From: an uncultured Clostridia bacterium
GTDB lineage: Bacteria; Bacillota; Clostridia; Christensenellales; UBA1242
DNA: 64,000 nt
Direction of reading: 5' to 3'
NCBI GenBank assembly: GCA_934754375.1
Contig: CAKVHT010000001.1
Coordinates: 713,548 to 777,547 of the forward strand
The notes below the pieces were generated by a model. It was given only the letters and a program-made list of their open reading frames with translations. It was not told where the DNA came from and did not search any database. Position numbers and translations under genes: made by a program. Below are positions 3,124 to 33,833 of this stretch, piece by piece (position 1 is the first letter of the stretch; each line of letters starts with the position of its first letter).

Positions 3124-3459
3124 TTAATAAGTATATTTATCGTCCCATTCCTTTTGAGCTTTTTTTACCAATATAACATATATAATCCCAGGAAAAATGT
3201 AAAAACAAAAAAGGATAAATGCCAAAAATCCATTTAATTTGGGCCTAGGAGGAGCAACTTTTAAATTAGTGCTATTTTTATTATTTGCAGGTGTGTTGTA
3301 GTAATAATTTATAACTTGTGCATTGTTATTGTTTGTTGTTCCTGAAAGTATTGCCCTTTCGGTTTCAAAACTTGTGTTACAATACTGGCATTTATTTACT
3401 TCTTTATTTTCATCAATACTTATTCCAGCACCACAATTTGGACATTTACACTCTTTCAT
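3124..3459 (-). CDS. Zinc-ribbon membrane protein (hypothetical)
   Basis: N-terminal CPNCG...CQYC zinc ribbon, an Asn-rich linker and a C-terminal TM helix (FLAFILFCFYIFPGIIYVILV). Confidence 0.7.
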   Translation of the reverse strand: MKECKCPNCGAGISIDENKEVNKCQYCNTSFETERAILSGTTNNNNAQVINYYYNTPANNKNSTNLKVAPPRPKLNGFLAFILFCFYIFPGIIYVILVKKAQKEWDDKYTY

Positions 3460-5895: not shown

Positions 5896-6243
5896 GCGTT
5901 TTAAACCAAATTTCGATGTTAGTCCCATATCTTTATTATGCACAATACCACCACCATTTATGTTTGTATTATACAATAAACCAGTTATAAACACAAATTA
6001 TCTGCCAAAATTTAAACAAATCTTCAAATGTGACTAAATAAAACACCGATACGATTTTTAAATAATTTAATATAAAATGAATTATTTAAATCTATTTTTA
6101 TGTTGAAAATCAATTATTTTTAATCATTTTTTATTATTTTTTAATATTTTCTAAAAACAATGATCGATAATTTAAACATCTGCTTGTCATTGCAGACAAT
6201 TACAAAAACAATATCTTAATTATTTGAATACAATTTAGGTATC

Positions 6244-6282: not shown

Positions 6283-7653
6283 TTATTGATTGTTTTCGCC
6301 TTTGCCTTCACGTTCACGAATCTTTTGAAGTGTTGCATTTGTTTGTTCCAAATCAGCTTCAAGTTGTGAAATTTGTTCTTCCAAAATATTGTTTGTATGT
6401 TCCAAAATTGGGAAGCGGTCTTTGTTGGCATTGATAACATCTTCACAGTGATTTACACTCAATCTCAAACCGTCCAATAATTCAAGTTCGTTTGCAAGCT
6501 TTTCAGCTTTTTCTTTATCAATATCAACATAGTTATTTACGCCATACAAAGCAACTTTCTTTTTAGCAACAATTGCTTCTTTACGACGAAGTTTTGTTTG
6601 ATATCTTTCAAGGTCTGTCATCACTTTTTTCAAAGGACGATATTCTTTCATATTGATTTTGTAATCTTTCTTTGCATTTTTAAGACGTTCTTCCAAAACT
6701 GCGATACGATTTAAACATTCTTCTTCTGTCATATCAATTGTAACAACTTCTGTTGGTTGTTCTGGTTGTTCGCTCAATTGTTTGTTTAAGCTTTCAAGTT
6801 GTGAAGTAAGTTCTGCAATACGTTTATTTGCGTCTTCAAGTTCTTGTTTTGTTTTTTCATCTTCAACAGATGTTGCTTCTTCAGTTGATTCAGGTTCAAC
6901 TTCTTCCACTGTTTCTTCTGTTTTAGTTTCTGCTTCAACTGGTTCTTCTGTTTTAGTTTCTGCTTCAACTGGTTCTTCTGTTTTAGTTTCTGCTTCTACA
7001 GGTTCTTCTTCAGATGTTGTTTCTTCTTCGCTTGATTCTTCATCTTCTTGTTGATTTAAGATTTTGTCAATGTCATATTGAGCCAGTACAGAGTTTTCTT
7101 CTTCTGGTTGATTTTCTTTGTCCTCTTTTGCTTCATCAACAACCTCATTGTTGATTTCGTCAATAAGGTTTTGTATGTCTAAATCATCTTCTGAATCGGT
7201 TTTATCTTCCTCATTTGATTCTTCATCAACTGCCATAGGTGCATCTTCTAAAGTTTTAACATCAGTTGCAGGCTTTTCATTTTCAGATTTAGTTTCTTCT
7301 TTGTTTTCGTTTTTAAGTCTATTTTCAATTTCTTCAAGATTAGAATCATTGTCTTCAACAAGTTTAAACAAATCATCTTCTTTGTTTGTTCCATCAATCA
7401 TTTCTTGTTCTTTTTGAGCTTTAGCCATGTTGATAGCCTCGAAGTCGTAATCTTGTCCTTTTGACTTATCCTCAATCAAATTTTGTTGTTTGTATTGTGT
7501 ATAATCCATAACTTCTTGTTTTGGTTGCTTAGAAGCACGATCCTCGTTATCAAAAGCCCCAATAATGATATGACCCAAGAAAGCAATCAAACCGCCAACA
7601 ACAATCACAATACCAATAATTGCTATAATACCTACAAATGCTTGCCATTCCAT
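6283..7653 (-). CDS. Membrane-anchored, highly acidic coiled-coil protein with internal tandem repeats (function unknown)
   Basis: 456 aa. N-terminal TM (FVGIIAIIGIVIVVGGLIAFLG), a Glu/Asp-rich low-complexity middle with EEPVEAETKT x3, and a C-terminal heptad-like Lys/Glu/Leu region. Confidence 0.8.
   Translation of the reverse strand: MEWQAFVGIIAIIGIVIVVGGLIAFLGHIIIGAFDNEDRASKQPKQEVMDYTQYKQQNLIEDKSKGQDYDFEAINMAKAQKEQEMIDGTNKEDDLFKLVEDNDSNLEEIENRLKNENKEETKSENEKPATDVKTLEDAPMAVDEESNEEDKTDSEDDLDIQNLIDEINNEVVDEAKEDKENQPEEENSVLAQYDIDKILNQQEDEESSEEETTSEEEPVEAETKTEEPVEAETKTEEPVEAETKTEETVEEVEPESTEEATSVEDEKTKQELEDANKRIAELTSQLESLNKQLSEQPEQPTEVVTIDMTEEECLNRIAVLEERLKNAKKDYKINMKEYRPLKKVMTDLERYQTKLRRKEAIVAKKKVALYGVNNYVDIDKEKAEKLANELELLDGLRLSVNHCEDVINANKDRFPILEHTNNILEEQISQLEADLEQTNATLQKIREREGKGENNQ
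6901..7010. repeat. 30-bp in-frame tandem repeat (about 3.5 copies) inside the acidic protein gene
   Basis: 6931-6960 and 6961-6990 are identical (tgcttcaactggttcttctgttttagtttc). The flanking units are degenerate. Confidence 0.9.
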
Positions 7654-7846
7654 AAAAAATAAATCTCCTTTTTATTTGTTCGCCTTATTATATCTCATAG
7701 CAATTGTTTTTTCAATACCTTTTTTGAAAATTTTTTAAAAAAATTAAAAAAATAAGGCAAAATTTCGCAAAAATACAACAAATCAAAGCAAAATTTAACC
7801 TTTTAAATAAAATTTTTTCAAAATTGTATTTAAACAGTCATCGTCT

Positions 7847-9232: not shown

Positions 9233-9323
9233 GCTAAAATTATAACAGATTAAACAAAAAAACTCTACATTTTCTTGATTTTTTTTCTCATTTTAACTAA
9301 ACTAATAATAAAAGAAGGGGTAC

Positions 9324-10085
9324 ATGCAAAGTTTAGATATAATTCGTCAAAAACGAAGATTTATTATGTTTAGTGAAAAAACAAAATCAGCCGTTTTGGA
9401 ACTGAATGCTTTTTTCGATAAATACGCAATGCACTTTGAAGAAAAAATTAAAAAATCTTTCACATACTACGATACTGATGATTTTGCTTTGTTAAAATCA
9501 AATATTGTGTTGTTCAAAACGCAAATTGGCAATTTTTGTGAATTAAACATGGCAACTGAAAAAATCAGTTCAACAAGCAGATTAACTTTGCGTTCAACCT
9601 ACAAACATTTCAACAAGTTAATCAAACCTCATGACCATTTGATGAAACATAAGCAATTTTTGATTGATAACTTCAAAAATATGTTTATTTCAGGTGTTAA
9701 TTTTGACCCTGAATTCTTGATGCAAAAATTAAAGCCAGCATACACAATCAACACAATAAGTGAAGAATATAAAAGCACAAATGGTATAGGTTTTAAAATC
9801 ACATATTCTTTTGATAAAGACACATACACCAATCATTTTACAGGTGTGAAAACTAATGCAAATATCTTAACAATTTATCAACATAGCAATGAGTCCACTG
9901 ACCCATATCTTGAAGATTTGGTTAGCAAATTGACACGTTATTGCAAAGAGCTTACCCCAACAAGCAAAACCAAAATTATGATTGCACGTGATTCTACAGC
10001 AAAGAAATTTGAACAAATGGATAAATTTAAACAAGAAAAAGAAAAGCAAAAAAGAGAACTTGAACTTAAAAAGAGAAAGAAATAA
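9324..10085 (+). CDS. Hypothetical protein (weak CYTH-like features, Lys/Glu-rich tail)
   Basis: 253 aa. GAAGGGG SD before the ATG. FTYYDTDDFALLKSNIVLFK resembles the YFDTpd..L strand of CYTH domains, but the EXEXK motif is absent. Confidence 0.6.
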   Translation: MQSLDIIRQKRRFIMFSEKTKSAVLELNAFFDKYAMHFEEKIKKSFTYYDTDDFALLKSNIVLFKTQIGNFCELNMATEKISSTSRLTLRSTYKHFNKLIKPHDHLMKHKQFLIDNFKNMFISGVNFDPEFLMQKLKPAYTINTISEEYKSTNGIGFKITYSFDKDTYTNHFTGVKTNANILTIYQHSNESTDPYLEDLVSKLTRYCKELTPTSKTKIMIARDSTAKKFEQMDKFKQEKEKQKRELELKKRKK

Positions 10086-12795: not shown

Positions 12796-12956
12796 TTTTT
12801 AAACTGACAGGCTTCAGCACTTCAACAGCCCTATTGCTCAAAAAGGTATATTAAGGGGCTGTTTAGTGCCCGGCTTAAAAGAAAGCAATCCAACACCCTA
12901 AAGGTGAAATTTGTATATTGTTAATATACAAATGAAATAATGGGCGAAATGGTCGC

Positions 12957-13023
12957 TTATAATGGGTATCGTTATGGTTGCTATGCTCGCTTTCGGTGGC
13001 ACTTTCGCTTACTTTACTGCTAA
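12957..13023. repeat. Left arm of a perfect 67-bp inverted repeat (partner 14340-14406)
   Basis: ttataatgggtatcgttatggttgctatgctcgctttcggtggcactttcgcttactttactgctaa is the exact reverse complement of 14340-14406, checked base by base. The flanking bases differ immediately on both sides. Confidence 0.97.
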
Positions 13024-13507
13024 AGCCAATGATAAGTCTGCAAGTGTTACAATGGGTCATGTAAGATTGGCAGCTTCTGGTGACGCATTTGAAACAGCTG
13101 CTACAGGTGTTATGCCTGGTGATAAAGTTGCAGTTGGTGGTGTTACTCTTACAGCTACAACAAACGATGATGAAGGTGAATGGGTAGCTATCAAAGTTAC
13201 TATCACAGGTGACAAAGCTTCAGCTTTGGCAATTGACACATCTTCTCTTGGTGCTGATTGGGAAGAAACAACAACAGGTTCAGGTATTTTTGTTTACAAC
13301 AAAAAATTAACTTCAACAGTTACAGTATTTGCTGAAGGTTTCCAAATTGCAACATCAGTTAGCGATGTTTGGGAAGAAGGTAAAGATGCTTCAAATTCAG
13401 GCATCATGGATGCAACTGTTACAGTTAAAGTTGAATCAAGAGGTATCCAAGCTTCTAACGTTACACTTGAAGTAGCTAAAACACAATTGGTAACATTGTT
13501 TGCTTAA
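12962..13507 (+). CDS. TasA/camelysin-like (SipW-type signal) protein cassette, 5'-truncated and probably silent
   Basis: MGIVMVAMLAFGGTFAYFTAKA carries the GGTFAYF(S/T) motif of SipW-dependent signal peptides. There is no SD and no charged n-region. An in-frame stop lies at 12938-12940. Confidence 0.7.
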   Translation: MGIVMVAMLAFGGTFAYFTAKANDKSASVTMGHVRLAASGDAFETAATGVMPGDKVAVGGVTLTATTNDDEGEWVAIKVTITGDKASALAIDTSSLGADWEETTTGSGIFVYNKKLTSTVTVFAEGFQIATSVSDVWEEGKDASNSGIMDATVTVKVESRGIQASNVTLEVAKTQLVTLFA

Positions 13508-13516
13508 TCTAAAGAA

Positions 13517-13545
13517 TAAAAAACCGACATCAGTCGGTTTTTTTC
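13517..13545 (+). terminator. Intrinsic terminator of the plus-strand TasA-like cassette
   Basis: AAAAAACCGAC-atca-GTCGGTTTTTTT. Confidence 0.8.
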
Positions 13546-13782
13546 TTATCTTCCAGAATTGTCATTGCAAATATGTTATTATAAAGAACAACAAAACAGA
13601 TTTTGTTGTTCTAATATATAATATATATGTAAGATGTTAATTTTTGCCTTAACATCAATTGGCATTAATTCAAAATAGCATTCAATTGCAAACATATAAT
13701 TTAAATAATTGTGGTTAAATTATTAAATTGCATACATGTTTTATAATTTAAAAATCTAAAATATTTAAGAAATGGATTGAAT

Positions 13783-13810
13783 AAAAAAAACACGCTAATG
13801 CGTGTTTTTA
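13783..13810 (-). terminator. Intrinsic terminator of the minus-strand TasA-like gene
   Basis: On the minus strand: AAAAACACGC-atta-GCGTGTTTTTTTT, 10 nt after the stop at 13820. Confidence 0.8.
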
Positions 13811-13819
13811 ATAATTTGA

Positions 13820-14455
13820 CTAAGCAGTTTTCAAACCTACAGCAGTCAAAGCTTGTTCTAATGTAGCATTTTGTAATTGACAAGCATAAGCTTCCAATTT
13901 AACTACAACTGTTTTACCCATCAAGTCAACTTTTGTTGTGCTGCCAGCTTCATTGTAAGAACCGTCAACATAAAGAACGTCAGCATTGAATGTAATAGCA
14001 TCACAAACATCAATATCGCCTGTTTGAGGAGCTGCATCAGTTGTTTGCATTGAATAAACACCTTCAACACCTGCAACACCTTCAACTTTTGTCCATGTGC
14101 CTTTTGGTGTTACATTCAAAACATCTGAAGGTACAGCAGTTGTTGCAGTTTTTTCATCAGCACCATAAGTAGCTGATACTTTTACAAACAAATATGCACC
14201 ACGGTCAGAATTATTTTTGAATGATACTTTACTAATAACTGTTTCAGTTGGAAGCACTAATTCTTTTTTAGCAACAGTAACAGCACCATCAGAAATGCTG
14301 ATTTTACCTGTTGTGAATGAGCCTTTTACTTCACTTGTCTTAGCAGTAAAGTAAGCGAAAGTGCCACCGAAAGCGAGCATAGCAACCATAACGATACCCA
14401 TTATAATGATTGCAAATGTTGACTTTGTCATCTTTTTAGATTTCATTTTTGTCAT
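13820..14455 (-). CDS. TasA/camelysin-like secreted protein with a SipW-type signal peptide (expressed copy)
   Basis: MTKMKSKKMTKSTFAIIIMGIVMVAMLAFGGTFAYFTAKTSEVKGSFTTGKISIS. AAAGGGG SD upstream, a Lys-rich n-region and the GGTFAYFTA motif. Confidence 0.85.
   Translation of the reverse strand: MTKMKSKKMTKSTFAIIIMGIVMVAMLAFGGTFAYFTAKTSEVKGSFTTGKISISDGAVTVAKKELVLPTETVISKVSFKNNSDRGAYLFVKVSATYGADEKTATTAVPSDVLNVTPKGTWTKVEGVAGVEGVYSMQTTDAAPQTGDIDVCDAITFNADVLYVDGSYNEAGSTTKVDLMGKTVVVKLEAYACQLQNATLEQALTAVGLKTA
14340..14406. repeat. Right arm of the perfect 67-bp inverted repeat (partner 12957-13023)
   Basis: Exact reverse complement of 12957-13023. Covers codons for IMGIVMVAMLAFGGTFAYFTAK of the expressed gene. 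Confidence 0.97.
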
Positions 14456-14482
14456 TTTAATTTTCCCCTTTAAAATTTTTTG

Positions 14483-14567: not shown

Positions 14568-15008
14568 TGTTCCCTAAATGCTAGATGTCGACCAAACGTG
14601 CAATGCACATTTGTTGCATACAAAGCAAAATGAAACTGTTTTTTCCGCACCTAGTGTGTACAATTTAAGCGCGAAAAGTTTGTATCACTACAAACAAATT
14701 TGCAAATTTACTTGTATGGGTTTTGCCCCAACAATATTGATACGTCGCCATACCAATTTTGCCTTTTGCACCAATCAAACCATTTAAAATAAATTGATTG
14801 ATACACGTTAATAAATTATTACTAATTTATTTTTAATTGACAGGTAAACTAATCGACATCATTCACTGTCAATTTCATGATATAACAATTAACGGTGGAT
14901 AGTCAAACAAAAAACGACATGTTTTGCCAAAAAAGCGATAGTTTTTGTTAAAAATGCCAAAAAACTGGCAAACTTATCTTTTTTAGATTGCTAATTTTAT
15001 TTCAAGCA

Positions 15009-15046: not shown

Positions 15047-18000
15047 CTATGCATTTGTAAGCAATTTATAAATTGTGTAAGTCAATGTTAAAGATGAATT
15101 TGCTTTGCCAACAAAACCAAATTCAATATCTCCGTCAACATTCAACGCAATAGTAAACTGATAAGTTTGACCATTGATTGTTATTGAAAGGTTGATTTGA
15201 TTTGCATTGTCTTTATCAAACTCAGCGGTGTAATTTGTGATTGCCTCGCCTGCCATATTTTCAACTTTAAAGCATGATGGCAAGTTGGTTGATTGCATAT
15301 CGCAATTGAATGTGAATGACAATGTTTCGTTATCAGTGAATTTGAGTGATGTAAGTTGTTTTTTATCTTCTCCACTGCCTTGGAATTGCTTAAATGCAAC
15401 TTTTGTTTGGTCGTCATAAGCAAATGATTTGCCGTCAATGCCAGGGTTGATAACATCTGAACCTGTCAATGTTGCTGGAGTGTTCAAGTTAAGTTTGATT
15501 ATATCATCAAACAACTTTTCTTCCACGGACAAAGAATATCCATTTTTAAGCACTTTTACATTGAAAGTTTTGTTTGCAACCAATGCAAATGTTTGATTGA
15601 TTTCAGTGCCTGTTGCTGTTGCATCGCCTGACAATACAATTGTATATTTGCTTGGCAAAATTGATGTGATTTTAAGTGTGGCAGTTGAATTTTCAAGATA
15701 ATAATCACTTTCAAATTTTGTGTTGCCTGAAAGGGTTGCATCATTAACTTTGATTTTATCAATATATTTTGCACTAGCCTCTTCAACATTCACGGTTACA
15801 TTAAATTTTAATATACTGCTTACGTAAATCTTAAGCAATTTTGAGCCATCATTTGTTGAGCCTTGCAATGAGGATATCATTGAATTTGTGATTGTTAAAG
15901 TTGAACCAGTTATCCTATGCTCGCCTTTTGAATCGGTGTAATAATAGTAAACCAATTCTTCATTCTTCAATGATTTTTTGCGCAACATTGTGAGTGTGTC
16001 ATTCACACTTGACATTTTTTGCAATTTCAATTTGCCAGCAATGTAGCCTGCTGTTGCTCCGTTTGATTGATATGTGTAGTTATCAAGGTTGCGTGGCAAA
16101 AGCACCATTTCAGTGTCAATCAACACTTTTTGGAACACAACTGTATATGTGCCTGCAATGCTTGAAACAAACACATCTTCACTTAAACCTGAAAGGTTGT
16201 TGCCGTCAGTGATAACAATGCGCCCGTTTGCTTGTTTAACATATTTGCTATCAATGTTGCCATAATCCTTTTTAACACCAACATAGCGATACCCAACTGG
16301 CACGTTGTTGATTTGAATTGACACTGTGTAACCCATAATGAATGAGCCTTGTTTGCCAACATCATTGCCATTTATATTTAAACTTGCGAATGTTGAAAGC
16401 AATGTATTGTCAGTTGAATGGAACACTGCCCCATTTGAACTGTCGCCAGCCACCACAAGTGTGATTTGACCTTGTTTTCTATCCACAATTTCAACACGAA
16501 TGTTGATTGCGCCAATTTCATAATCGCTGTTTTTGATATAAATCTTGTTGAGGCTATCCAAACGTGCACTGTCATCGTTGACATAGATGATTAAGTCATA
16601 AATTTCTTTTAATGTATAACTAATTGAAATTTCGTCATTTGTTACAACATTGCCTGTTTGTGGATTGTTTTGCAAGTTGTTTAAACTGCCATGATTTACC
16701 ATCAAAAGCCAATCGGTTAAATAAGTTGATATTGTTGATTGGTCGATTTGTTCGCCCCTATATGTGAACACCAAATTTACTGGCAATTCAACAGGAACAA
16801 AGTTTGCATAAATGGTCATATCTTCATAAGTTTTAACAGGAGATGTGATTGTTGAACCATTTTGATTTGTGAAATTTACACCAGTGTAATACTTACTGTT
16901 GAATGTTGCTGTTATTGCATTTTCAAGCCCGTTATATGTGTATATAAATGTTGTTTGACTGCCAATATGTTCGCTTTCAGCTGAGAGTGTTACCGCATTA
17001 TAGTTGTTGCCATTTGCAACAGTTAATGTACGTGTTGTGCAGTTTGTGTCGTTTACACCTGGCACAATTGCCAATGTGATTTTGTGCATTTCCGCCACCT
17101 CAAACGCAAAACTGAAATAACGTTGAGATTTTGGCACAATAATGCCACGGTCTGTTTCCACCATATTGAACAAATCATCGGTTGTGATGTTGTAAGTGTT
17201 TACAGGCAAATCTTTTAACAAGAAATTATATTCACAAGGGTACAATGTTTTGCTTGCAACAGATTTTGGTTGATAACCCCAACTGTTTAAGAATGCATAA
17301 GGCTTATCATTATACATATAGCAATAAACCACACTATCATTTGCGTCTAAAACTGTTGATGCAGGCAATTCTAATGTATGCGTGCCTTTGTTAAGGTTCC
17401 ACTCTGTTTCTTGCAAATAGTTATCAAGTGTATCCGTTGTTGAGCCTTGGTTGAATATGCTGTAATAAATGTCAAAATCAAGCAAGATTATATTGATATC
17501 AATATCGCCTAATTGTTGACTTGCTTCTACTGAATAATTTCCAGTTGTGTAGAAATATTTCCTAAGCCAGAAGCCACTTAAATTTAAATAATATGTTTGT
17601 CTTTCTTTTGCTGTTGTGCGGTTGATTAATTCGCCAGAAAGGTCATAAGACTGCAAAAGTGTTCCATTTGTTGTAAAGTCTTTTTCTGCCAAACCATAAC
17701 CGGTATATGCATAATAGAACAATTCAACTTTTTCGTCACGTTTTAAGTTTGTAACAGTATATGGTTGTGCGGTTGTTCTCTTGCTGTATCCTTGGCGAGC
17801 GATTTCCATCATGCCTGCACTTTGATTTGTCATCGACATAATGGTGCTGTAACCAATTCTGTCATAAACAATGCTGATGTCGATTTTAGAACCTGTTTCG
17901 AGTTCAATATCGGTCAAAAGCAGATTGTTTAATTTTGTTTTTGCGCCAACATCTGTGTTGGTATCAAAAGTTATCAAATATGAATAACTTGTTTTTGCAA

Positions 18001-21000
18001 CTTGTGAAATAGAATTAACCTTACATTCAAGTTTGTTTTGATATCTAAAACCAATCATTGGGTCGTAATATGCTGTGGATTTGTCTGTAGTCAATTCTGT
18101 AACTTTGCTTTGGTCATAAACCTCTACATTTACTGTGCAACCTCTGTAAATAACAATATTTGACAATGTTGCCAGGCTTGATAAATCAATTTTTCTTAAA
18201 TAACCAAGGTCAATGCTTAGTGTTGAATCTAACACGTATATTTTAGTCTCGCCTGATGTGTAATCATATTTAAGCAAATATCTACCTGTTGCAGAATCAA
18301 AGCCAGAACCAACTGCATTGTCTTGTACATTCACGTCTAAGTAACCAACAAAATCTCTATATGTTTTGTTATTTATACTGTAAATCACATCAAAATCAAG
18401 CACGTAAGATTCACGATAGAACACTGGGTATAATGTTGGATTTTGAATATTGTTTTTATCTCCATCAACTTGCCACAATTGGTCAACCTTGTTTGATGTT
18501 GGGTCTTTTATTGTCAAACCAGTAAGCAAATTTGGATGTTGTGAGCCAGTTGCTGGATTATATCTTGAAGTGATATATGCTAATGTTCCGTTTGCACCAT
18601 TATATTTCCATGCAATTTGGTCAAAATATTCTCTTTCAAACACCAAGTTGCCCATTGCCTGATTGTTTGCCAAGAATATGTATCTTGTAGCATTTTCTCC
18701 GTAAACACGTCTCAAATAATATGTTCCGCTTAGAGTTGTGTCACCAATCCCCGCTTGATAGCCTTGCGCCAGATTATAAAGTGTTGACGCAAAGTAATCA
18801 GTTGTGTTTTGCACGTAAGTTGGTGCACACCAATAAGAATAATCAAAATATGGTCCAATCAGGCTATCATTGGTCATAACCATGGTTATGGTTGACTCGT
18901 CTGCTGTAATGTAATCACATTCAGCCAATGTTTCGCTTTCAAGCCCTATTATATTAACCTTATAGATATTGTCTGTTTCATATTTTGATATAGACAAAGT
19001 ATATTTGCCATCACCGTAACTGAAATCTGATGATGGTATATCCAGATAATTCCATTTTACAGCCTGTTTATTTTCGCCTTTGCCAGCATTGTCACAAACA
19101 ACTGGAATACCTGATTTTGTAAGGTAACAAACAATCGTTTTACCAACGCTTGCCCTATTGCCACGATTGATTATGTAGTCCGCATCATATTTTAAAGGTG
19201 TTGTATAGTTTTGGAACTCATAAACAGCCTGCAAATTATCATCATATTTAACAGCTGAAGTCAATTCTATAGTTGCTGCCGACCACACAGGTGTCACTGT
19301 AAATGTTGTTGTTGCAAGAACATAGTCCCCTTGCGTCCAAACATCTAAAGCCCCTGAAAGTGTTGCCAATGCCGTTTGACTAGGAGTTGTCAATGCTTGC
19401 AAAACATTTGCGCTTGTGGTTTGCGATGTTTTTGAGTATTGCCATGCTTTTTTGCCACTATCGTAATATACATAATATGTTAGCCCACCATATTTAAATG
19501 AAATTTCATAGGCTGTTATTTCATAACCGTACTTAAACAAGCCGTATTGTCCAGCATTATCATATAATATAGAATTTTTGGTCTGGTCAAATGTGTAGAA
19601 AGCTGTTCCATCCGAATAAACAAAATCTGCTTTTGAAGCGCCATTTATTATAAATGATTGGAATGAAGATAATTGCTTGTTGCTGGTAATTACACCAGAA
19701 ACATATTTTTCTTCTTTTGCGCCTGAAACTGCTGGCTTATATATTACTGATTTTTGTGCATTATAAACACCTATAGTATAGTCATTGGTCCAACTTGGGA
19801 TTAATGGCATGATATAAGCCTTTTCATAATCAGAAAATGCTTCATTCTTGGTCTTTGGCTCTAATGTATATCCTGCAGTACCAGAAATGCGTGTAACGTT
19901 TTTATAATATGTATTGATATTATCTATTGTTTTAATTTCTTCTTGATAAGTAAATTCAAGCCAAATATTTTCATCATAATCAGCAAAGTATCCCATCGTT
20001 GGTGAACCGTTAAGCCTTAAAGGAATTTTCCATCTTGAAGTATATGTTCCATCTAAGTTTTGCTTTGTTGAGCCTTCCACAAATTCAAAATATGACTTCT
20101 TTAATGCGCCAACATCAACAAGCCAACCATTAAACGTTGAATGCTTTGTGATTGAATTATAATCTTTTTCACCCAACATCGCCTTTAATGTTTCTTCATC
20201 TTGAGGCAAATCCACCCCTTCATAAGATATTACTTCTTTCCTTTTTTTCCCTTGAAGTATAACATCTTGGTAAGTATCGGCCACTGGTGGATATGCTTCA
20301 CTTACATAATAGCCGTTTTCAGAAGCGAATACCCATCCGTTGCTGAGTTGATCATAAAATTTTAACCAGTGGCTTGTTCCGCCTTTTATTGTGTAACCAT
20401 ACATTGCCAAATCGTATTCACACAATTTGTATTTGATTGTAATCTCACCGTTTAAATCAATATTCTCTTTGCTAGTCCAATTCGTATTTATAAGGTCTGT
20501 ACTATTTTGCAATCCAGAATTTATCCCAACGATTGACGATTGATTATAATCTATCGCGTATCCATTTTTAGGATAATGCAATTGTAGTGTTACTTCTTTT
20601 TCTTCCCCTTTGCTTAATGATGGGAATGTAAATGTGCAACTATCTTTAACATAACTAAACTTTTCTTTTCCACCATAAGTCATATAAACTATTTGTTTAG
20701 CACTTCCGTCTTGGTTTGTGATTTTTGAGCTAACACCACCCATTGTTTGCACCCAGTAAACATTATTTTTTGTTGATGTTGTCAGATTCTCTGGAGCATT
20801 AAACTGTAAAGCATATTTTTTGAAAACATTATTCTCTTCTTCCCAATTCTCTTTTTCAGTATAACGCATTGTGACTGTACCGTATGAGTATATTATTGTT
20901 GGAGTGGTATTGATAAATTTGCCAGCACTAATAGCCGAATTTACCACACTTATAGAAGTTCCAAACCAACGACCATAAAGGCTAAATTCTTTTGTTTTTG

Positions 21001-21898
21001 ATATGTGAGGATCACTACTTGAGCCCAATTGGCTTTTTTGCTCAGAAGTCAAAGCTGGAATTTTAAAGGTGCAAAGAGTTACTGTGGTTTTTACCCCAGT
21101 GTTTGTTACATATTCCAAATTGTATCTGATAGTGTCAGTGTCAACAAAACTTCTTAATGTTGGCAATTCGTTATTGTACTTAAAAGGATCTGATGGAGCC
21201 AAATACCACAATGCTTTATTACTATTAGGGGTTTCATCAAGATCTTGTGTAATATTCCAACCCAAATCATCATGGTAAAACGAATATTGGCTTTGATTTT
21301 GTATATCTTCAGTCCATTGTCCTGTTAATATGATGGTATAATTCTTATTACCATCTTGATTTTTATCTGAAAATTTAACATAAATGTGTTTTGTGTATGA
21401 AGAACTCCCATCTGTAGTTGTAGTACTTTCGTAAGTTCTTCTTTCCCAGACAGCGGTCATTTTATAAGTGCTTGAGACATTGTTTGAAGAAAGGCATGTC
21501 CCCAATGGCACATATTTTGCAGTTTTGCCTAGATTAAAAGGGTGGACTGTCAGATTGACAGGGTTATCTCTATCATCAGTAGCTGTATAACCTTTAACAA
21601 CCCATTTAGAACTATCTAATAGGTTGTTGGTATAGTTACCATAAATATTATTGTAAGGTGAAAAAACTAAAGGAGTGGAACCATTCTTAACTTTTACCGT
21701 TACAGTTGACCCGCTCCAATGTTCAGTACCCATATCATATATATAAGTTTGATAAACTGGGTCGGAATTAACAGCATACGCATAATCTAATTGTTGAACA
21801 CTTAGTGTGATAAGCAATGAAGCACAAAAAATTATAAAAGCAAATAAAGTTGCCCATTTTGTTTTTTTATTTTTCTCTTTAACAAAATACATTTGCAC
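15047..21898 (-). CDS. Giant (2283 aa) secreted or cell-surface beta-rich protein, function unknown
   Basis: Uninterrupted 6.85-kb ORF. N-terminal signal peptide (KWATLFAFIIFCASLLITLSVQQLDYAYA|V). Asn/Thr/Tyr/Ser-rich throughout. No LPXTG and no C-terminal TM. Scattered ..GY.....W endings (VVKGYTATDD..TAVWE, FNGWLVD, TVTPVWS) recall Listeria-Bacteroides-type repeats. Confidence 0.9.
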   Translation of the reverse strand: MQMYFVKEKNKKTKWATLFAFIIFCASLLITLSVQQLDYAYAVNSDPVYQTYIYDMGTEHWSGSTVTVKVKNGSTPLVFSPYNNIYGNYTNNLLDSSKWVVKGYTATDDRDNPVNLTVHPFNLGKTAKYVPLGTCLSSNNVSSTYKMTAVWERRTYESTTTTDGSSSYTKHIYVKFSDKNQDGNKNYTIILTGQWTEDIQNQSQYSFYHDDLGWNITQDLDETPNSNKALWYLAPSDPFKYNNELPTLRSFVDTDTIRYNLEYVTNTGVKTTVTLCTFKIPALTSEQKSQLGSSSDPHISKTKEFSLYGRWFGTSISVVNSAISAGKFINTTPTIIYSYGTVTMRYTEKENWEEENNVFKKYALQFNAPENLTTSTKNNVYWVQTMGGVSSKITNQDGSAKQIVYMTYGGKEKFSYVKDSCTFTFPSLSKGEEKEVTLQLHYPKNGYAIDYNQSSIVGINSGLQNSTDLINTNWTSKENIDLNGEITIKYKLCEYDLAMYGYTIKGGTSHWLKFYDQLSNGWVFASENGYYVSEAYPPVADTYQDVILQGKKRKEVISYEGVDLPQDEETLKAMLGEKDYNSITKHSTFNGWLVDVGALKKSYFEFVEGSTKQNLDGTYTSRWKIPLRLNGSPTMGYFADYDENIWLEFTYQEEIKTIDNINTYYKNVTRISGTAGYTLEPKTKNEAFSDYEKAYIMPLIPSWTNDYTIGVYNAQKSVIYKPAVSGAKEEKYVSGVITSNKQLSSFQSFIINGASKADFVYSDGTAFYTFDQTKNSILYDNAGQYGLFKYGYEITAYEISFKYGGLTYYVYYDSGKKAWQYSKTSQTTSANVLQALTTPSQTALATLSGALDVWTQGDYVLATTTFTVTPVWSAATIELTSAVKYDDNLQAVYEFQNYTTPLKYDADYIINRGNRASVGKTIVCYLTKSGIPVVCDNAGKGENKQAVKWNYLDIPSSDFSYGDGKYTLSISKYETDNIYKVNIIGLESETLAECDYITADESTITMVMTNDSLIGPYFDYSYWCAPTYVQNTTDYFASTLYNLAQGYQAGIGDTTLSGTYYLRRVYGENATRYIFLANNQAMGNLVFEREYFDQIAWKYNGANGTLAYITSRYNPATGSQHPNLLTGLTIKDPTSNKVDQLWQVDGDKNNIQNPTLYPVFYRESYVLDFDVIYSINNKTYRDFVGYLDVNVQDNAVGSGFDSATGRYLLKYDYTSGETKIYVLDSTLSIDLGYLRKIDLSSLATLSNIVIYRGCTVNVEVYDQSKVTELTTDKSTAYYDPMIGFRYQNKLECKVNSISQVAKTSYSYLITFDTNTDVGAKTKLNNLLLTDIELETGSKIDISIVYDRIGYSTIMSMTNQSAGMMEIARQGYSKRTTAQPYTVTNLKRDEKVELFYYAYTGYGLAEKDFTTNGTLLQSYDLSGELINRTTAKERQTYYLNLSGFWLRKYFYTTGNYSVEASQQLGDIDINIILLDFDIYYSIFNQGSTTDTLDNYLQETEWNLNKGTHTLELPASTVLDANDSVVYCYMYNDKPYAFLNSWGYQPKSVASKTLYPCEYNFLLKDLPVNTYNITTDDLFNMVETDRGIIVPKSQRYFSFAFEVAEMHKITLAIVPGVNDTNCTTRTLTVANGNNYNAVTLSAESEHIGSQTTFIYTYNGLENAITATFNSKYYTGVNFTNQNGSTITSPVKTYEDMTIYANFVPVELPVNLVFTYRGEQIDQSTISTYLTDWLLMVNHGSLNNLQNNPQTGNVVTNDEISISYTLKEIYDLIIYVNDDSARLDSLNKIYIKNSDYEIGAINIRVEIVDRKQGQITLVVAGDSSNGAVFHSTDNTLLSTFASLNINGNDVGKQGSFIMGYTVSIQINNVPVGYRYVGVKKDYGNIDSKYVKQANGRIVITDGNNLSGLSEDVFVSSIAGTYTVVFQKVLIDTEMVLLPRNLDNYTYQSNGATAGYIAGKLKLQKMSSVNDTLTMLRKKSLKNEELVYYYYTDSKGEHRITGSTLTITNSMISSLQGSTNDGSKLLKIYVSSILKFNVTVNVEEASAKYIDKIKVNDATLSGNTKFESDYYLENSTATLKITSILPSKYTIVLSGDATATGTEINQTFALVANKTFNVKVLKNGYSLSVEEKLFDDIIKLNLNTPATLTGSDVINPGIDGKSFAYDDQTKVAFKQFQGSGEDKKQLTSLKFTDNETLSFTFNCDMQSTNLPSCFKVENMAGEAITNYTAEFDKDNANQINLSITINGQTYQFTIALNVDGDIEFGFVGKANSSLTLTYTIYKLLTNA

Positions 21899-31551: not shown

Positions 31552-31904
31552 GGGGGTGAAACAGTTTCGACTGTTATGCTTCGATTTGATACGCACGTCG
31601 AGAGGCATCTCGTTAAAAATGCGCTTGTTTTTGTACAAGTTTAAATAAATCAAAACAATAATAAACTTGCTTACGCTGCTTAATGCGTAGCCGTCAGTTT
31701 AGCAGTACCGATATGCTAAAATCTGATGTCAATTATCGGTTAAAGATTGATTTTGTTGCCTAGCAAACTCAATTTACTTTTAGGCTGGAAATTTGCAAGT
31801 GTTGGTGTGAGTTGCAAATTTCAAGATATACTCATCAACTAAACGTGTAGTGTATGATTTCCAAGTATGGCAGGACATGGGTGCAAATCCCATCATCTCC
31901 ACCA
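31552..31904 (+). ncRNA. ssrA: tmRNA (SsrA)
   Basis: 5' GGGGGUGAAACAGUUUCGAC and 3' GGACAUGGGUGCAAAUCCCAUCAUCUCCACCA (tRNA-like acceptor/T-arm). The tag reading frame ends ...AAT AAT AAA CTT GCT TAC GCT GCT TAA (31681-31683), giving ..NQNNNKLAYAA. Confidence 0.93.
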
Positions 31905-33362: not shown

Positions 33363-33833
33363 CTAATTTTGCCTACGCAAATCTCTTTCAATTTGTTTTG
33401 TTTTTAATGTTTCGCGCTTGTCTGCAAGCTTTTTGCCACGTGCAACCGCCAATTCAATTTTAAGATTGCTTCCACTGAAATATGCTTTTAATGGAACAAG
33501 TGTTAGCCTTTCTTGCTCAATTTGCTTTTTCAATTTTTGAATTTGCACTTTATGCAACAATAATTTTCTATCTCTTCTGGTGTTGTCGCCACCCCTGCCA
33601 GCATCATAACTGTTTGCATATTCTTTTATATAACTGTTACGCAAAAACACCTCATTGTTTTTAAGATATCCATAACAATCCACCAAAGAAAAATGCCCTG
33701 CACGCACAGATTTGATTTCGTCTCCCGTTAAAACAATGCCTGCTTCCAATGTCTCTAATATTGTATATTCAAACCTAGCGCGTCTATTTTCCGCCACCAA
33801 TGCTTGATTAGTTTTTATGTTTTTTTCAGCCAT
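33363..33833 (-). CDS. smpB: SsrA-binding protein SmpB
   Basis: NRRARFEYTILETLEAGIVLTGDEIKSVR...LLLHKVQIQKL. Canonical SmpB, 156 aa. Confidence 0.95.
   Translation of the reverse strand: MAEKNIKTNQALVAENRRARFEYTILETLEAGIVLTGDEIKSVRAGHFSLVDCYGYLKNNEVFLRNSYIKEYANSYDAGRGGDNTRRDRKLLLHKVQIQKLKKQIEQERLTLVPLKAYFSGSNLKIELAVARGKKLADKRETLKTKQIERDLRRQN

Follow-up and report, generated by a model that had tools for sequence, protein, structure and literature searches.

A probable inversion-based cassette switch for a TasA-like secreted fibre subunit in uncultured gut Christensenellales

Introduction

Two convergent open reading frames (ORFs) in the genome of an uncultured Clostridia bacterium of the order Christensenellales (assembly GCA_934754375.1, contig CAKVHT010000001.1, positions 713,548 to 777,547; this 64-kb stretch is referred to below as the window) carry the same 67-bp sequence in inverted orientation within the region that codes for their signal peptides. 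An earlier note on this DNA proposed that recombination between the two copies would fuse a single expressed 5' end to either of two mature domains. The locus thus raises the question of whether these genes are alternative forms of one surface protein, exchanged by inversion, or static paralogues that share a repeat. Comparison between genomes supports the former interpretation at the population level, and we consider it likely that the locus switches between cassettes by inversion and so varies a TasA-like secreted fibre subunit, as a two-cassette system of antigenic variation. TasA-type fibres are a model for the biofilm matrix in Firmicutes, and to our knowledge their genes have so far been treated as fixed structural genes.

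In the proposed mechanism, an expression site on the minus strand, comprising promoter, leader, Shine-Dalgarno sequence (SD), ATG, and signal-peptide n-region, would read into a 1316-bp segment that holds two promoterless mature-domain cassettes arranged tail to tail, each with its own terminator. Reciprocal recombination between the 67-bp arms would flip this segment and fuse the single 5' end in frame with the alternative cassette, leaving the displaced one as a 5'-truncated silent copy with neither ribosome-binding site nor n-region.

Results

The inverted repeat and the two genes that share it

On recomputation, the arms were again exact reverse complements over all 67 positions (Table 1), with identity ending at once on the outer side and only scattered matches continuing inward in a base-by-base comparison. 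A wider repeat search of the window recovered the same pair as 76 nt at 95% identity. In 64 kb at 34% G+C, the longest inverted repeat expected by chance is about 17 nt, and the expectation for an exact 67-nt inverted repeat, about 4e-29, rules out a chance origin. No further copy of the arm, down to 12-mers of the repeat, occurs in the window. Similarly, in a collection of species-representative metagenome-assembled genomes (MAGs) that excludes the window's own genome, the Candidatus (Ca.) Onthoplasma MAG matching the exact arm pattern contains the two arms of this locus and no others.

The left arm codes for (I)IMGIVMVAMLAFGGTFAYFTAK, which takes in the hydrophobic core and the GGTFA cleavage motif and extends into the start of the mature protein; if the protein is cut after GGTFA, which we take to be the cleavage site by analogy with TasA, the repeat would also code for the first five mature residues, YFTAK. 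Upstream of this core, the plus-strand ORF (cassette A) has an in-frame TAA at 12938-12940, no SD, and no charged n-region. Beyond the repeat, the mature parts of the two genes are nearly unrelated, with 37% identity over just 38 amino acids (aa) near the C-terminus. The terminators, which the earlier note had placed at 13517-13545 and 13783-13810, were recovered as hairpins at 13518-13543 and 13809-13786, and their placement is correct for either orientation of the segment. The earlier note's remaining claims about this architecture—an exact 67-bp inverted repeat with sharp ends, a SipW-type signal-peptide core common to two convergent genes (to which the ORFs and the TIGR04088 profile attest), no such identity between the mature parts, and an SD and Lys-rich n-region on the minus-strand copy only—are likewise upheld by the present data.

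Database gene calls for the two window genes (P0003 and P0129) begin at internal or downstream methionines: for the silent copy, an internal Met yields 177 aa (MVAML...), and for the expressed copy, a downstream Met yields 203 aa. With these starts, public annotations hide both the truncation and the common 5' end.

Both orientations occur among related genomes

A post-inversion chimera, consisting of the expressed N-terminus and the silent mature domain, was used as a protein-database query. The top matches, P0001 (200 aa, 92% identity) and P0002 (199 aa, 90% identity), correspond to the predicted chimera, with the MTKMKSKKMTKSTFAIII start joined to the mature domain that is silent in the window. 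The cassette A mature domain is joined to the expression site in P0001, P0002, P0121-P0123, and P0126, and cassette B appears in silent form in P0131, P0136, P0137, and L007; the window's own expressed protein (P0128) is 93.7% identical to silent P0131. Protein clusters at 90% identity mix long (expressed) forms with short forms starting at the repeat's internal Met, and mature sequences are identical between P0002 (199 aa) and P0125 (181 aa), as they are between P0005 (198 aa) and P0133 (180 aa). Four cassette types are present in both states, fused to the expression site and 5'-truncated.

At the nucleotide level, the related loci L002 and L009, from two samples, have the same strain background and opposite segment orientation: L002 1-1116 matches L009 4006-5121 with 2 mismatches across the flank (99.8%), and L002 1047-1615 matches the reverse complement of L009 6458-5890 across the cassette with 0 mismatches (100%). 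The window's left flank has a 94% match in a Ca. Onthoplasma MAG (L003/L005; JBNMLD010000019.1), which, past that flank, continues as the reverse complement of window positions 14406-13514, which include cassette B, both terminators, and the spacer; the cassette expressed in the window occupies the silent position in this MAG. In L001, L002, and L003/L005, the whole segment, spacer included, lies opposite to that of the window relative to the flanks. L007 and L009, whose flanks are 99.6% identical, likewise have their spacers in opposite orientations, and a cassette 98.4% identical between L031 and L004 is expressed in one of these loci and silent in its counterpart. Gene conversion without inversion was considered and is ruled out, since the spacer and terminators flip along with the cassettes. 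The inversion that the earlier note had predicted, fusing the single 5' end to the other mature domain, is therefore represented both among proteins (P0001/P0002) and in DNA (L002 vs. L009), and the comparison of orientation in related genomes that it had suggested yields both orientations, the L002 and L009 pair among them.

Three of six k141 contigs, L013 (end at 9679), L014 (9656), and L015 (9564), stop at or just past the silent arm (9539-9604). The stop in L013 lies exactly 75 nt (k of 141 minus an arm of 66) past the arm, the distance expected for a de Bruijn branch at the arm; orientations may be mixed in those samples, or strains with different cassettes may co-occur.

Conservation and concerted evolution of the arms

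A search of species-representative MAGs with a degenerate arm pattern identified this architecture in about 11 of them, with at least 15 related loci; a single metagenome-contig scan yielded one locus. The MAGs are labelled as Ca. Onthoplasma (a member of Christensenellales), Christensenella sp. UBA4626, Clostridia or Clostridiales bacterium, and, in one case, Lachnospiraceae. Every complete locus has one copy with an n-region and one silent copy, or two silent copies in CAZTNT010000027.1, and in each of the at least 15 loci the silent cassettes have intact reading frames and individual terminators. Species with mature domains less than 50% identical keep this layout of one expressed copy plus silent ones.

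Arms of 63-71 nt occupy the same place in all related loci. Within a genome, the arms match perfectly in 11 loci and at 97-98.5% in three; between genomes, 3-12 of 63 positions differ, distributed over the whole arm and always present in both arms. Identity within genomes, together with between-genome differences common to both arms, shows continuing exchange between the arms (concerted evolution). Purifying selection on the encoded peptide is ruled out as the cause of arm identity, as synonymous sites are the same within genomes and differ between them. The earlier note had held that divergence of the two signal-peptide regions at synonymous sites in relatives would speak against a switch; the opposite is observed, with arms that co-vary within each genome.

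The locus on CAZTNT010000027.1 (L020 and L018 concatenated) has one expression site, two silent cassettes, and three identical 63-nt arms. A 79-nt direct repeat joins its two silent arms, so that deletion would be possible there besides inversion. Cassette content also varies among close relatives: L007 and L009, with flanks 99.6% identical, carry entirely different cassette pairs (C/B vs. D/A) between conserved arms and spacer, and the window and L006, with flanks 96-98% identical, likewise differ in their cassette pairs. Cassettes seem to be exchanged singly between strains from a pool of at least eight types, as judged from these sequences.

L009 (4331-4440 vs. 7047-7153), L007, and L002 carry a further, outer inverted repeat, about 110 nt long and 84% identical, with one copy in the leader and the other beyond the silent arm; it is absent from the window. 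L031 has a shorter pair at the matching position (50 nt at 94%, 3303-3352 vs. 6729-6778). Past duplication of the leader may have left this outer repeat behind.

The expression site

An alignment of the upstream regions of seven diverged loci revealed a conserved set of putative expression signals. The SD AAAGGGGAAAA and the n-region are invariant in all seven, as is the -35 element GTTTGACTAT (window positions 14906-14901), distant species included; the -10 element (TATCAT in the window, 14882-14877) is conserved at the right spacing in the same loci. The leader of about 420 nt diverges around a 16-nt perfect palindrome, CAAATTTGCAAATTTG, which is itself unchanged and could control the fibre gene, whether as an operator or as an RNA hairpin. 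In this alignment, the silent side shows no promoter, SD, or leader palindrome; all three are confined to the expression side. Between the promoter and the upstream gene, which codes for a protein of 2283 aa, lies a terminator-like hairpin (14970-14955). No structured RNA was recognised in the leader (590 nt) at the Rfam gathering threshold, the sole Rfam match being a transfer-messenger RNA (tmRNA) elsewhere in the window. In L001, the counterpart of the terminator that follows silent cassette A in the window lies downstream of an expressed A cassette.

Table 1. Coordinates of the features of the putative switch locus in the window and of the arms in the three-cassette relative
Feature	Position	Strand	Remarks
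Left inverted-repeat arm	12957..13023	+	Silent side; 67/67 reverse complement of 14340-14406
Silent cassette A ORF, 181 aa	12962..13507	+	Begins MGIVMVAMLAFGGTFAYFTAK; TasA-like fold (predicted)
Putative invertible segment, 1316 bp	13024..14339	no strand	Two tail-to-tail mature-domain cassettes, two terminators, AT-rich spacer
Bidirectional terminator hairpin after cassette A	13518..13543	both strands	Terminator-like hairpin scan
Terminator after cassette B	13786..13809	-	Terminator-like hairpin scan; kept in L001 8449-8490
Expressed gene, 211 aa: fixed 5' end plus cassette B	13820..14455	-	Begins MTKMKSKKMTKSTFAIII, then same core
Right inverted-repeat arm	14340..14406	-	Expression-site side
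Fixed translation start outside repeat	14407..14470	-	SD AAGGGG 14470-14465, ATG 14455-14453, Lys-rich n-region MTKMKSKKMTKSTFAI
Leader palindrome, core CAAATTTGCAAATTTG	14689..14716	-	Repeat search; invariant in seven loci
Candidate promoter	14877..14906	-	TTGACT, 18 nt, TATCAT; ~420 nt upstream of ATG; consensus scan
CAZTNT010000027.1 arms	6015-6077, 7718-7780, 9320-9382	+, -, -	Three-cassette version

Assignment of the proteins to the TasA group

Both ORFs match the NCBIfam profile for SipW-dependent signal peptides (TIGR04088) above its curated cut-off of 19, with 22.1 bits for the plus-strand and 27.9 bits for the minus-strand ORF. Three further lines of evidence, each weak and all concordant, make "TasA-like" a reasonable, though not firmly proven, designation for the predicted proteins. 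First, the minus-strand gene matches Pfam Peptidase_M73 (PF12389, camelysin/TasA) at 24 bits against a cut-off of 22.5, a match restricted to residues 17-82, the N-terminal third of the protein, and to profile positions 9-73 of 196. No Peptidase_M73 match was obtained for the plus-strand ORF in the Pfam scan; a precomputed PF12389 match is present in many relatives. Second, a profile built from 50 family members and compared with all PDB sequences returned two matches, both of them TasA (E 0.11 and 0.23). Third, AlphaFold models of cassette A and the cassette B gene (predicted local distance difference test scores of 81.4 and 84.7, respectively, the latter model having been fed a mixed-family alignment, as the cassette B homologues fell into 3 clusters) both have as their top PDB match in Foldseek the cryo-electron microscopy structure of the TasA fibre, 8aur_A. 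The Foldseek probability is 0.99-1.0; the other values for this match are weak (E 5e-3 for A and 4e-3 for B; TM 0.42-0.46), and donor-strand pilins (Saf) come next in the list for one of the two models.

Like Bacillus subtilis TasA, B. cereus CalY (camelysin), and Clostridium perfringens BsaA, the proteins described here combine a SipW-type signal peptide motif (TIGR04088) with a length of 180-210 aa; unlike those fibre genes, they have no sipW or tapA neighbour. A SipW-type peptidase (Peptidase_S24/S26) is absent among window ORFs of at least 120 aa in the Pfam scan, and among Pfam-annotated neighbours within 8-10 kb of the locus in L010-L016. We know of no case in which the TasA, CalY, or BsaA model genes vary by inversion.

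Neighbouring genes and insertions

In relatives, the spacer between the cassettes and a site just outside the silent arm form an insertion hotspot for defence- or toxin-like genes (L001 6762-8393; L024 4979-6484; L025 1144-2337; L011 10052-11818; CAZTNT010000027.1 7929-8306). The inserted genes include HEPN_RiboL-PSP together with GmrSD/NsnA-like, PDC-S60-like, HNH/PD-T4-1-like, and PDC-S49-like genes, as well as a Doc-like ORF recognised by eye. The window's own spacer (13544-13785) contains no insertion.

Directly upstream of the expression site and on the same strand (15047-21898, minus), the 2283-aa ORF has an N-terminal signal or anchor and no Pfam match. Its product shares just 39-43% identity with positional counterparts in L001, L009, and L031 despite similar flanks, and its sequence suggests a fast-evolving putative surface protein. 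Other genera have an unrelated protein of 380-393 aa in its place; kinship between the two was considered and rejected, as they have no similarity. Elsewhere, the window contains a tmRNA gene (31552-31904, plus; Rfam 121.9 bits) with smpB nearby (33363-33833, minus), and the remainder consists of housekeeping genes, including those for ribosomal proteins, EF-Tu, glycolysis, mnmA, and rsmF.

Discussion

Points against a switch

Several observations weigh against the interpretation of this locus as a switch. No recombinase or transposase (Phage_integrase, Resolvase, transposase) was identified by Pfam among about 45 window ORFs of at least 120 aa, about ten of which had no Pfam match of any kind; this agrees with the earlier note, which had seen none in the window. 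In L010-L016, the annotated genes up to 8-10 kb from the locus include no recombinase either. An arm of 67 bp is a short substrate for efficient RecA-dependent exchange, and switching may be rare for that reason. L030, a second assembly of the window's strain (100% over 6.6 kb), has the segment in the same orientation as the window, and six P0010 loci from different samples all share one orientation. The opposite orientations seen are between genomes; that both would coexist within one population, and that populations would switch at a useful rate, is our inference. The TasA assignment depends on weak, if concordant, matches. Finally, production and export of the expression-site copy alone are predicted from sequence signals.

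How the segment would be inverted

We slightly favour homology-driven exchange, of RecA type with gene conversion across the arms, over the action of an unlinked recombinase, and regard it as about an even prospect. A conservative exchange with a fixed crossover would not be expected to homogenise 63-67 nt, whereas homology-driven exchange with heteroduplex repair would, and this tips the balance towards a RecA-type route; co-variation over the full length of the arms is consistent with RecA-dependent or general homologous recombination, short of proving it.

Somewhat less probable, and still a serious contender, is a dedicated site-specific recombinase (tyrosine, serine, or Piv-like) whose gene lies elsewhere and which would recognise, in trans, a core site within the arms. 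The position and boundaries of the arms are strictly conserved across species, as such an enzyme would lead one to expect, and trans-acting examples include Bacteroides Mpi and the Xer-type enzymes of Ureaplasma. Xer-type enzymes have been proposed for the Ureaplasma mba locus (PMC3599477), and programmed inversions without a nearby recombinase are documented in a recent catalogue (Milman et al. 2023, PMC9881135), which leaves room for an enzyme acting in trans. However, a fixed crossover would not homogenise 63-67 nt, yet co-variation spans the entire arm; the arms are far longer than typical recombinase sites; and no recombinase is encoded near any related locus or, among ORFs of at least 120 aa scanned with Pfam, in the 64-kb window. 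The genes inserted into the segment in relatives (HEPN, GmrSD, HNH, PDC-S60-like) do not include one either.

It appears improbable that the two genes are static paralogues whose repeat is kept by occasional gene conversion, with inversions as rare accidents that serve no switching function and the short copy as a decaying pseudogene. The agreement in orientation between same-strain assemblies would fit this explanation, as would the lack of a recombinase in the window and in the neighbourhoods examined in relatives, and the orientation comparisons are between samples rather than within one. However, a decaying pseudogene would not remain open and repeat-perfect so widely: the silent cassettes are intact ORFs with terminators of their own in all of the at least 15 loci, and the layout persists across species with mature domains less than 50% identical. 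The occurrence of four cassette types in both states, also between contigs 99.8-100% identical, and the existence of a three-cassette version likewise argue against static paralogues.

That the opposite orientations are repeat-caused assembly artefacts is very improbable: all related sequences are metagenome assemblies and several contigs terminate at or near the arms, but arms of 63-71 nt are shorter than the reads and the final k-mers (99-141), so that the junctions should be spanned by reads, each orientation recurs over independent samples and assemblers (ENA MEGAHIT, JGI, metaSPAdes scaffolds, and NCBI MAGs), and contigs of 43-804 kb run through the locus.

Relation to known inversion systems

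Among the closest parallels to the proposed inversion switch is the type IV pilin Q/I system of Moraxella bovis and M. lacunata (tfpQ/tfpI, Piv), whose fixed promoter and constant 5' coding region are located beyond the ends of an invertible segment of about 2 kb. The Moraxella segment holds two opposed alternative 3' coding cassettes, the crossover falls inside the coding sequence, and two variants of a fibre subunit result. The locus described here shares the outside promoter and 5' end, the opposed cassettes, the in-gene crossover, and the switch of a fibre subunit. It differs in its target, a TasA-like SipW-type protein rather than a type IV pilin; in its host, Christensenellales rather than Proteobacteria; in its sites, which are short in Moraxella and here form a 67-bp arm over the signal-peptide core; and in having no recombinase nearby, whereas the Piv gene adjoins the Moraxella segment. 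The earlier note had likened the logic of the locus to that of hsdS- or pilin-type inversion shufflons; the inversion logic of the Moraxella pilin Q/I system is retained here, but an R64-type shufflon is rejected, as there are two arms (three in one relative) of 63-71 nt in place of 19-bp sfx sites, and no Rci.

A similar economy is known from Mycoplasma pulmonis vsa (HvsR, vrs sites) and Ureaplasma mba/UU172, where a single expression site provides the promoter, start codon, and signal-peptide 5' end, silent genes lack these parts, and inversion at 5'-coding repeats makes chimeric genes (PMC3047005). One expression site, incomplete silent copies, and chimeras formed by inversion in the 5' coding region are common to those systems and to this locus. 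The vsa and mba products are lipoproteins with tandem repeats, encoded by many silent genes with short sites (~20-34 bp) and an adjacent or Xer-type tyrosine recombinase implicated, in contrast to the one or two silent cassettes, long perfect arms, and predicted TasA-like fold of the present system. In the Campylobacter fetus sap system, S-layer inversion is RecA-dependent, uses long conserved 5' coding regions, and has no dedicated invertase. This system likewise varies a surface protein, by homology-driven exchange that keeps the repeats identical, as proposed here. The sap promoter, however, is carried on the invertible element between divergent cassettes, with about 600 bp of homology, whereas here promoter and leader lie outside a segment of convergent cassettes and homology extends over just 67 bp; a sap-type layout is ruled out by the conserved promoter outside the segment.

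Milman, Yelin and Kishony 2023 (PMC9881135) catalogued gene-altering programmed inversions, whose main targets are restriction-modification specificity genes, SusC/RagA proteins, pilins, and phage tail proteins. Like those loci and hsdS invertons (PMC4948785, PMC7672463), the present locus has a repeat common to a full gene and a shorter, opposed partial gene, and rearrangement within species is taken as evidence in that catalogue as it is here. Among the features by which such inversions are recognised, the repeats lie inside the coding sequence of a full gene and of an opposed 5'-truncated partner, and both orientations occur among conspecific or near-identical genomes; no recombinase domain was recognised in or next to the region with Pfam. 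TasA, camelysin, SipW, and M73 are not mentioned in the main text of PMC9881135. More broadly, our literature search found no paper linking TasA, SipW, camelysin, or Christensenellales with inversion or phase variation (survey supplements may list such loci as hypothetical proteins), in line with the earlier note, whose author was aware of no such description for TasA-like fibre subunits. The switch logic is thus already known from Moraxella pilin Q/I, Mycoplasma vsa, and Ureaplasma mba, while the TasA-like target and the clade appear to be undescribed. What is unusual here is that the arms coincide with the signal-peptide core and that no recombinase is linked to them.

Implications

The practical consequences begin with annotation: the silent copy is taken for an ordinary gene with an internal Met start (177-181 aa), and strain-level comparisons will misread a flip as a rearrangement. 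The locus, with its 67-bp arms and no local recombinase, is also a compact system in which to ask whether programmed inversion can be driven by short coding repeats without a dedicated invertase.

In a more inclusive picture, gut Christensenellales with small genomes, namely the clade of Ca. Onthoplasma and its relatives, would vary their major TasA-like surface fibre by recombinase-free, homology-driven inversion in signal-peptide DNA, drawing on a population-wide pool of cassettes, with the spacer as an integration hotspot for anti-phage genes. We consider it rather unlikely that all of these parts hold together; if they do, the hotspot would mean that strong diversifying selection acts on the fibre as a phage receptor or immunoglobulin A target.

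Across an entire clade of uncultured gut Clostridia, antigenically unrelated TasA-like subunits appear to be alternated by DNA inversion. A Gram-positive, non-pilin fibre would thereby join the short list of surface structures varied by means of an expression site and silent cassettes, and the switch suggests that, in the gut, host immunity or phages target TasA-like fibres.

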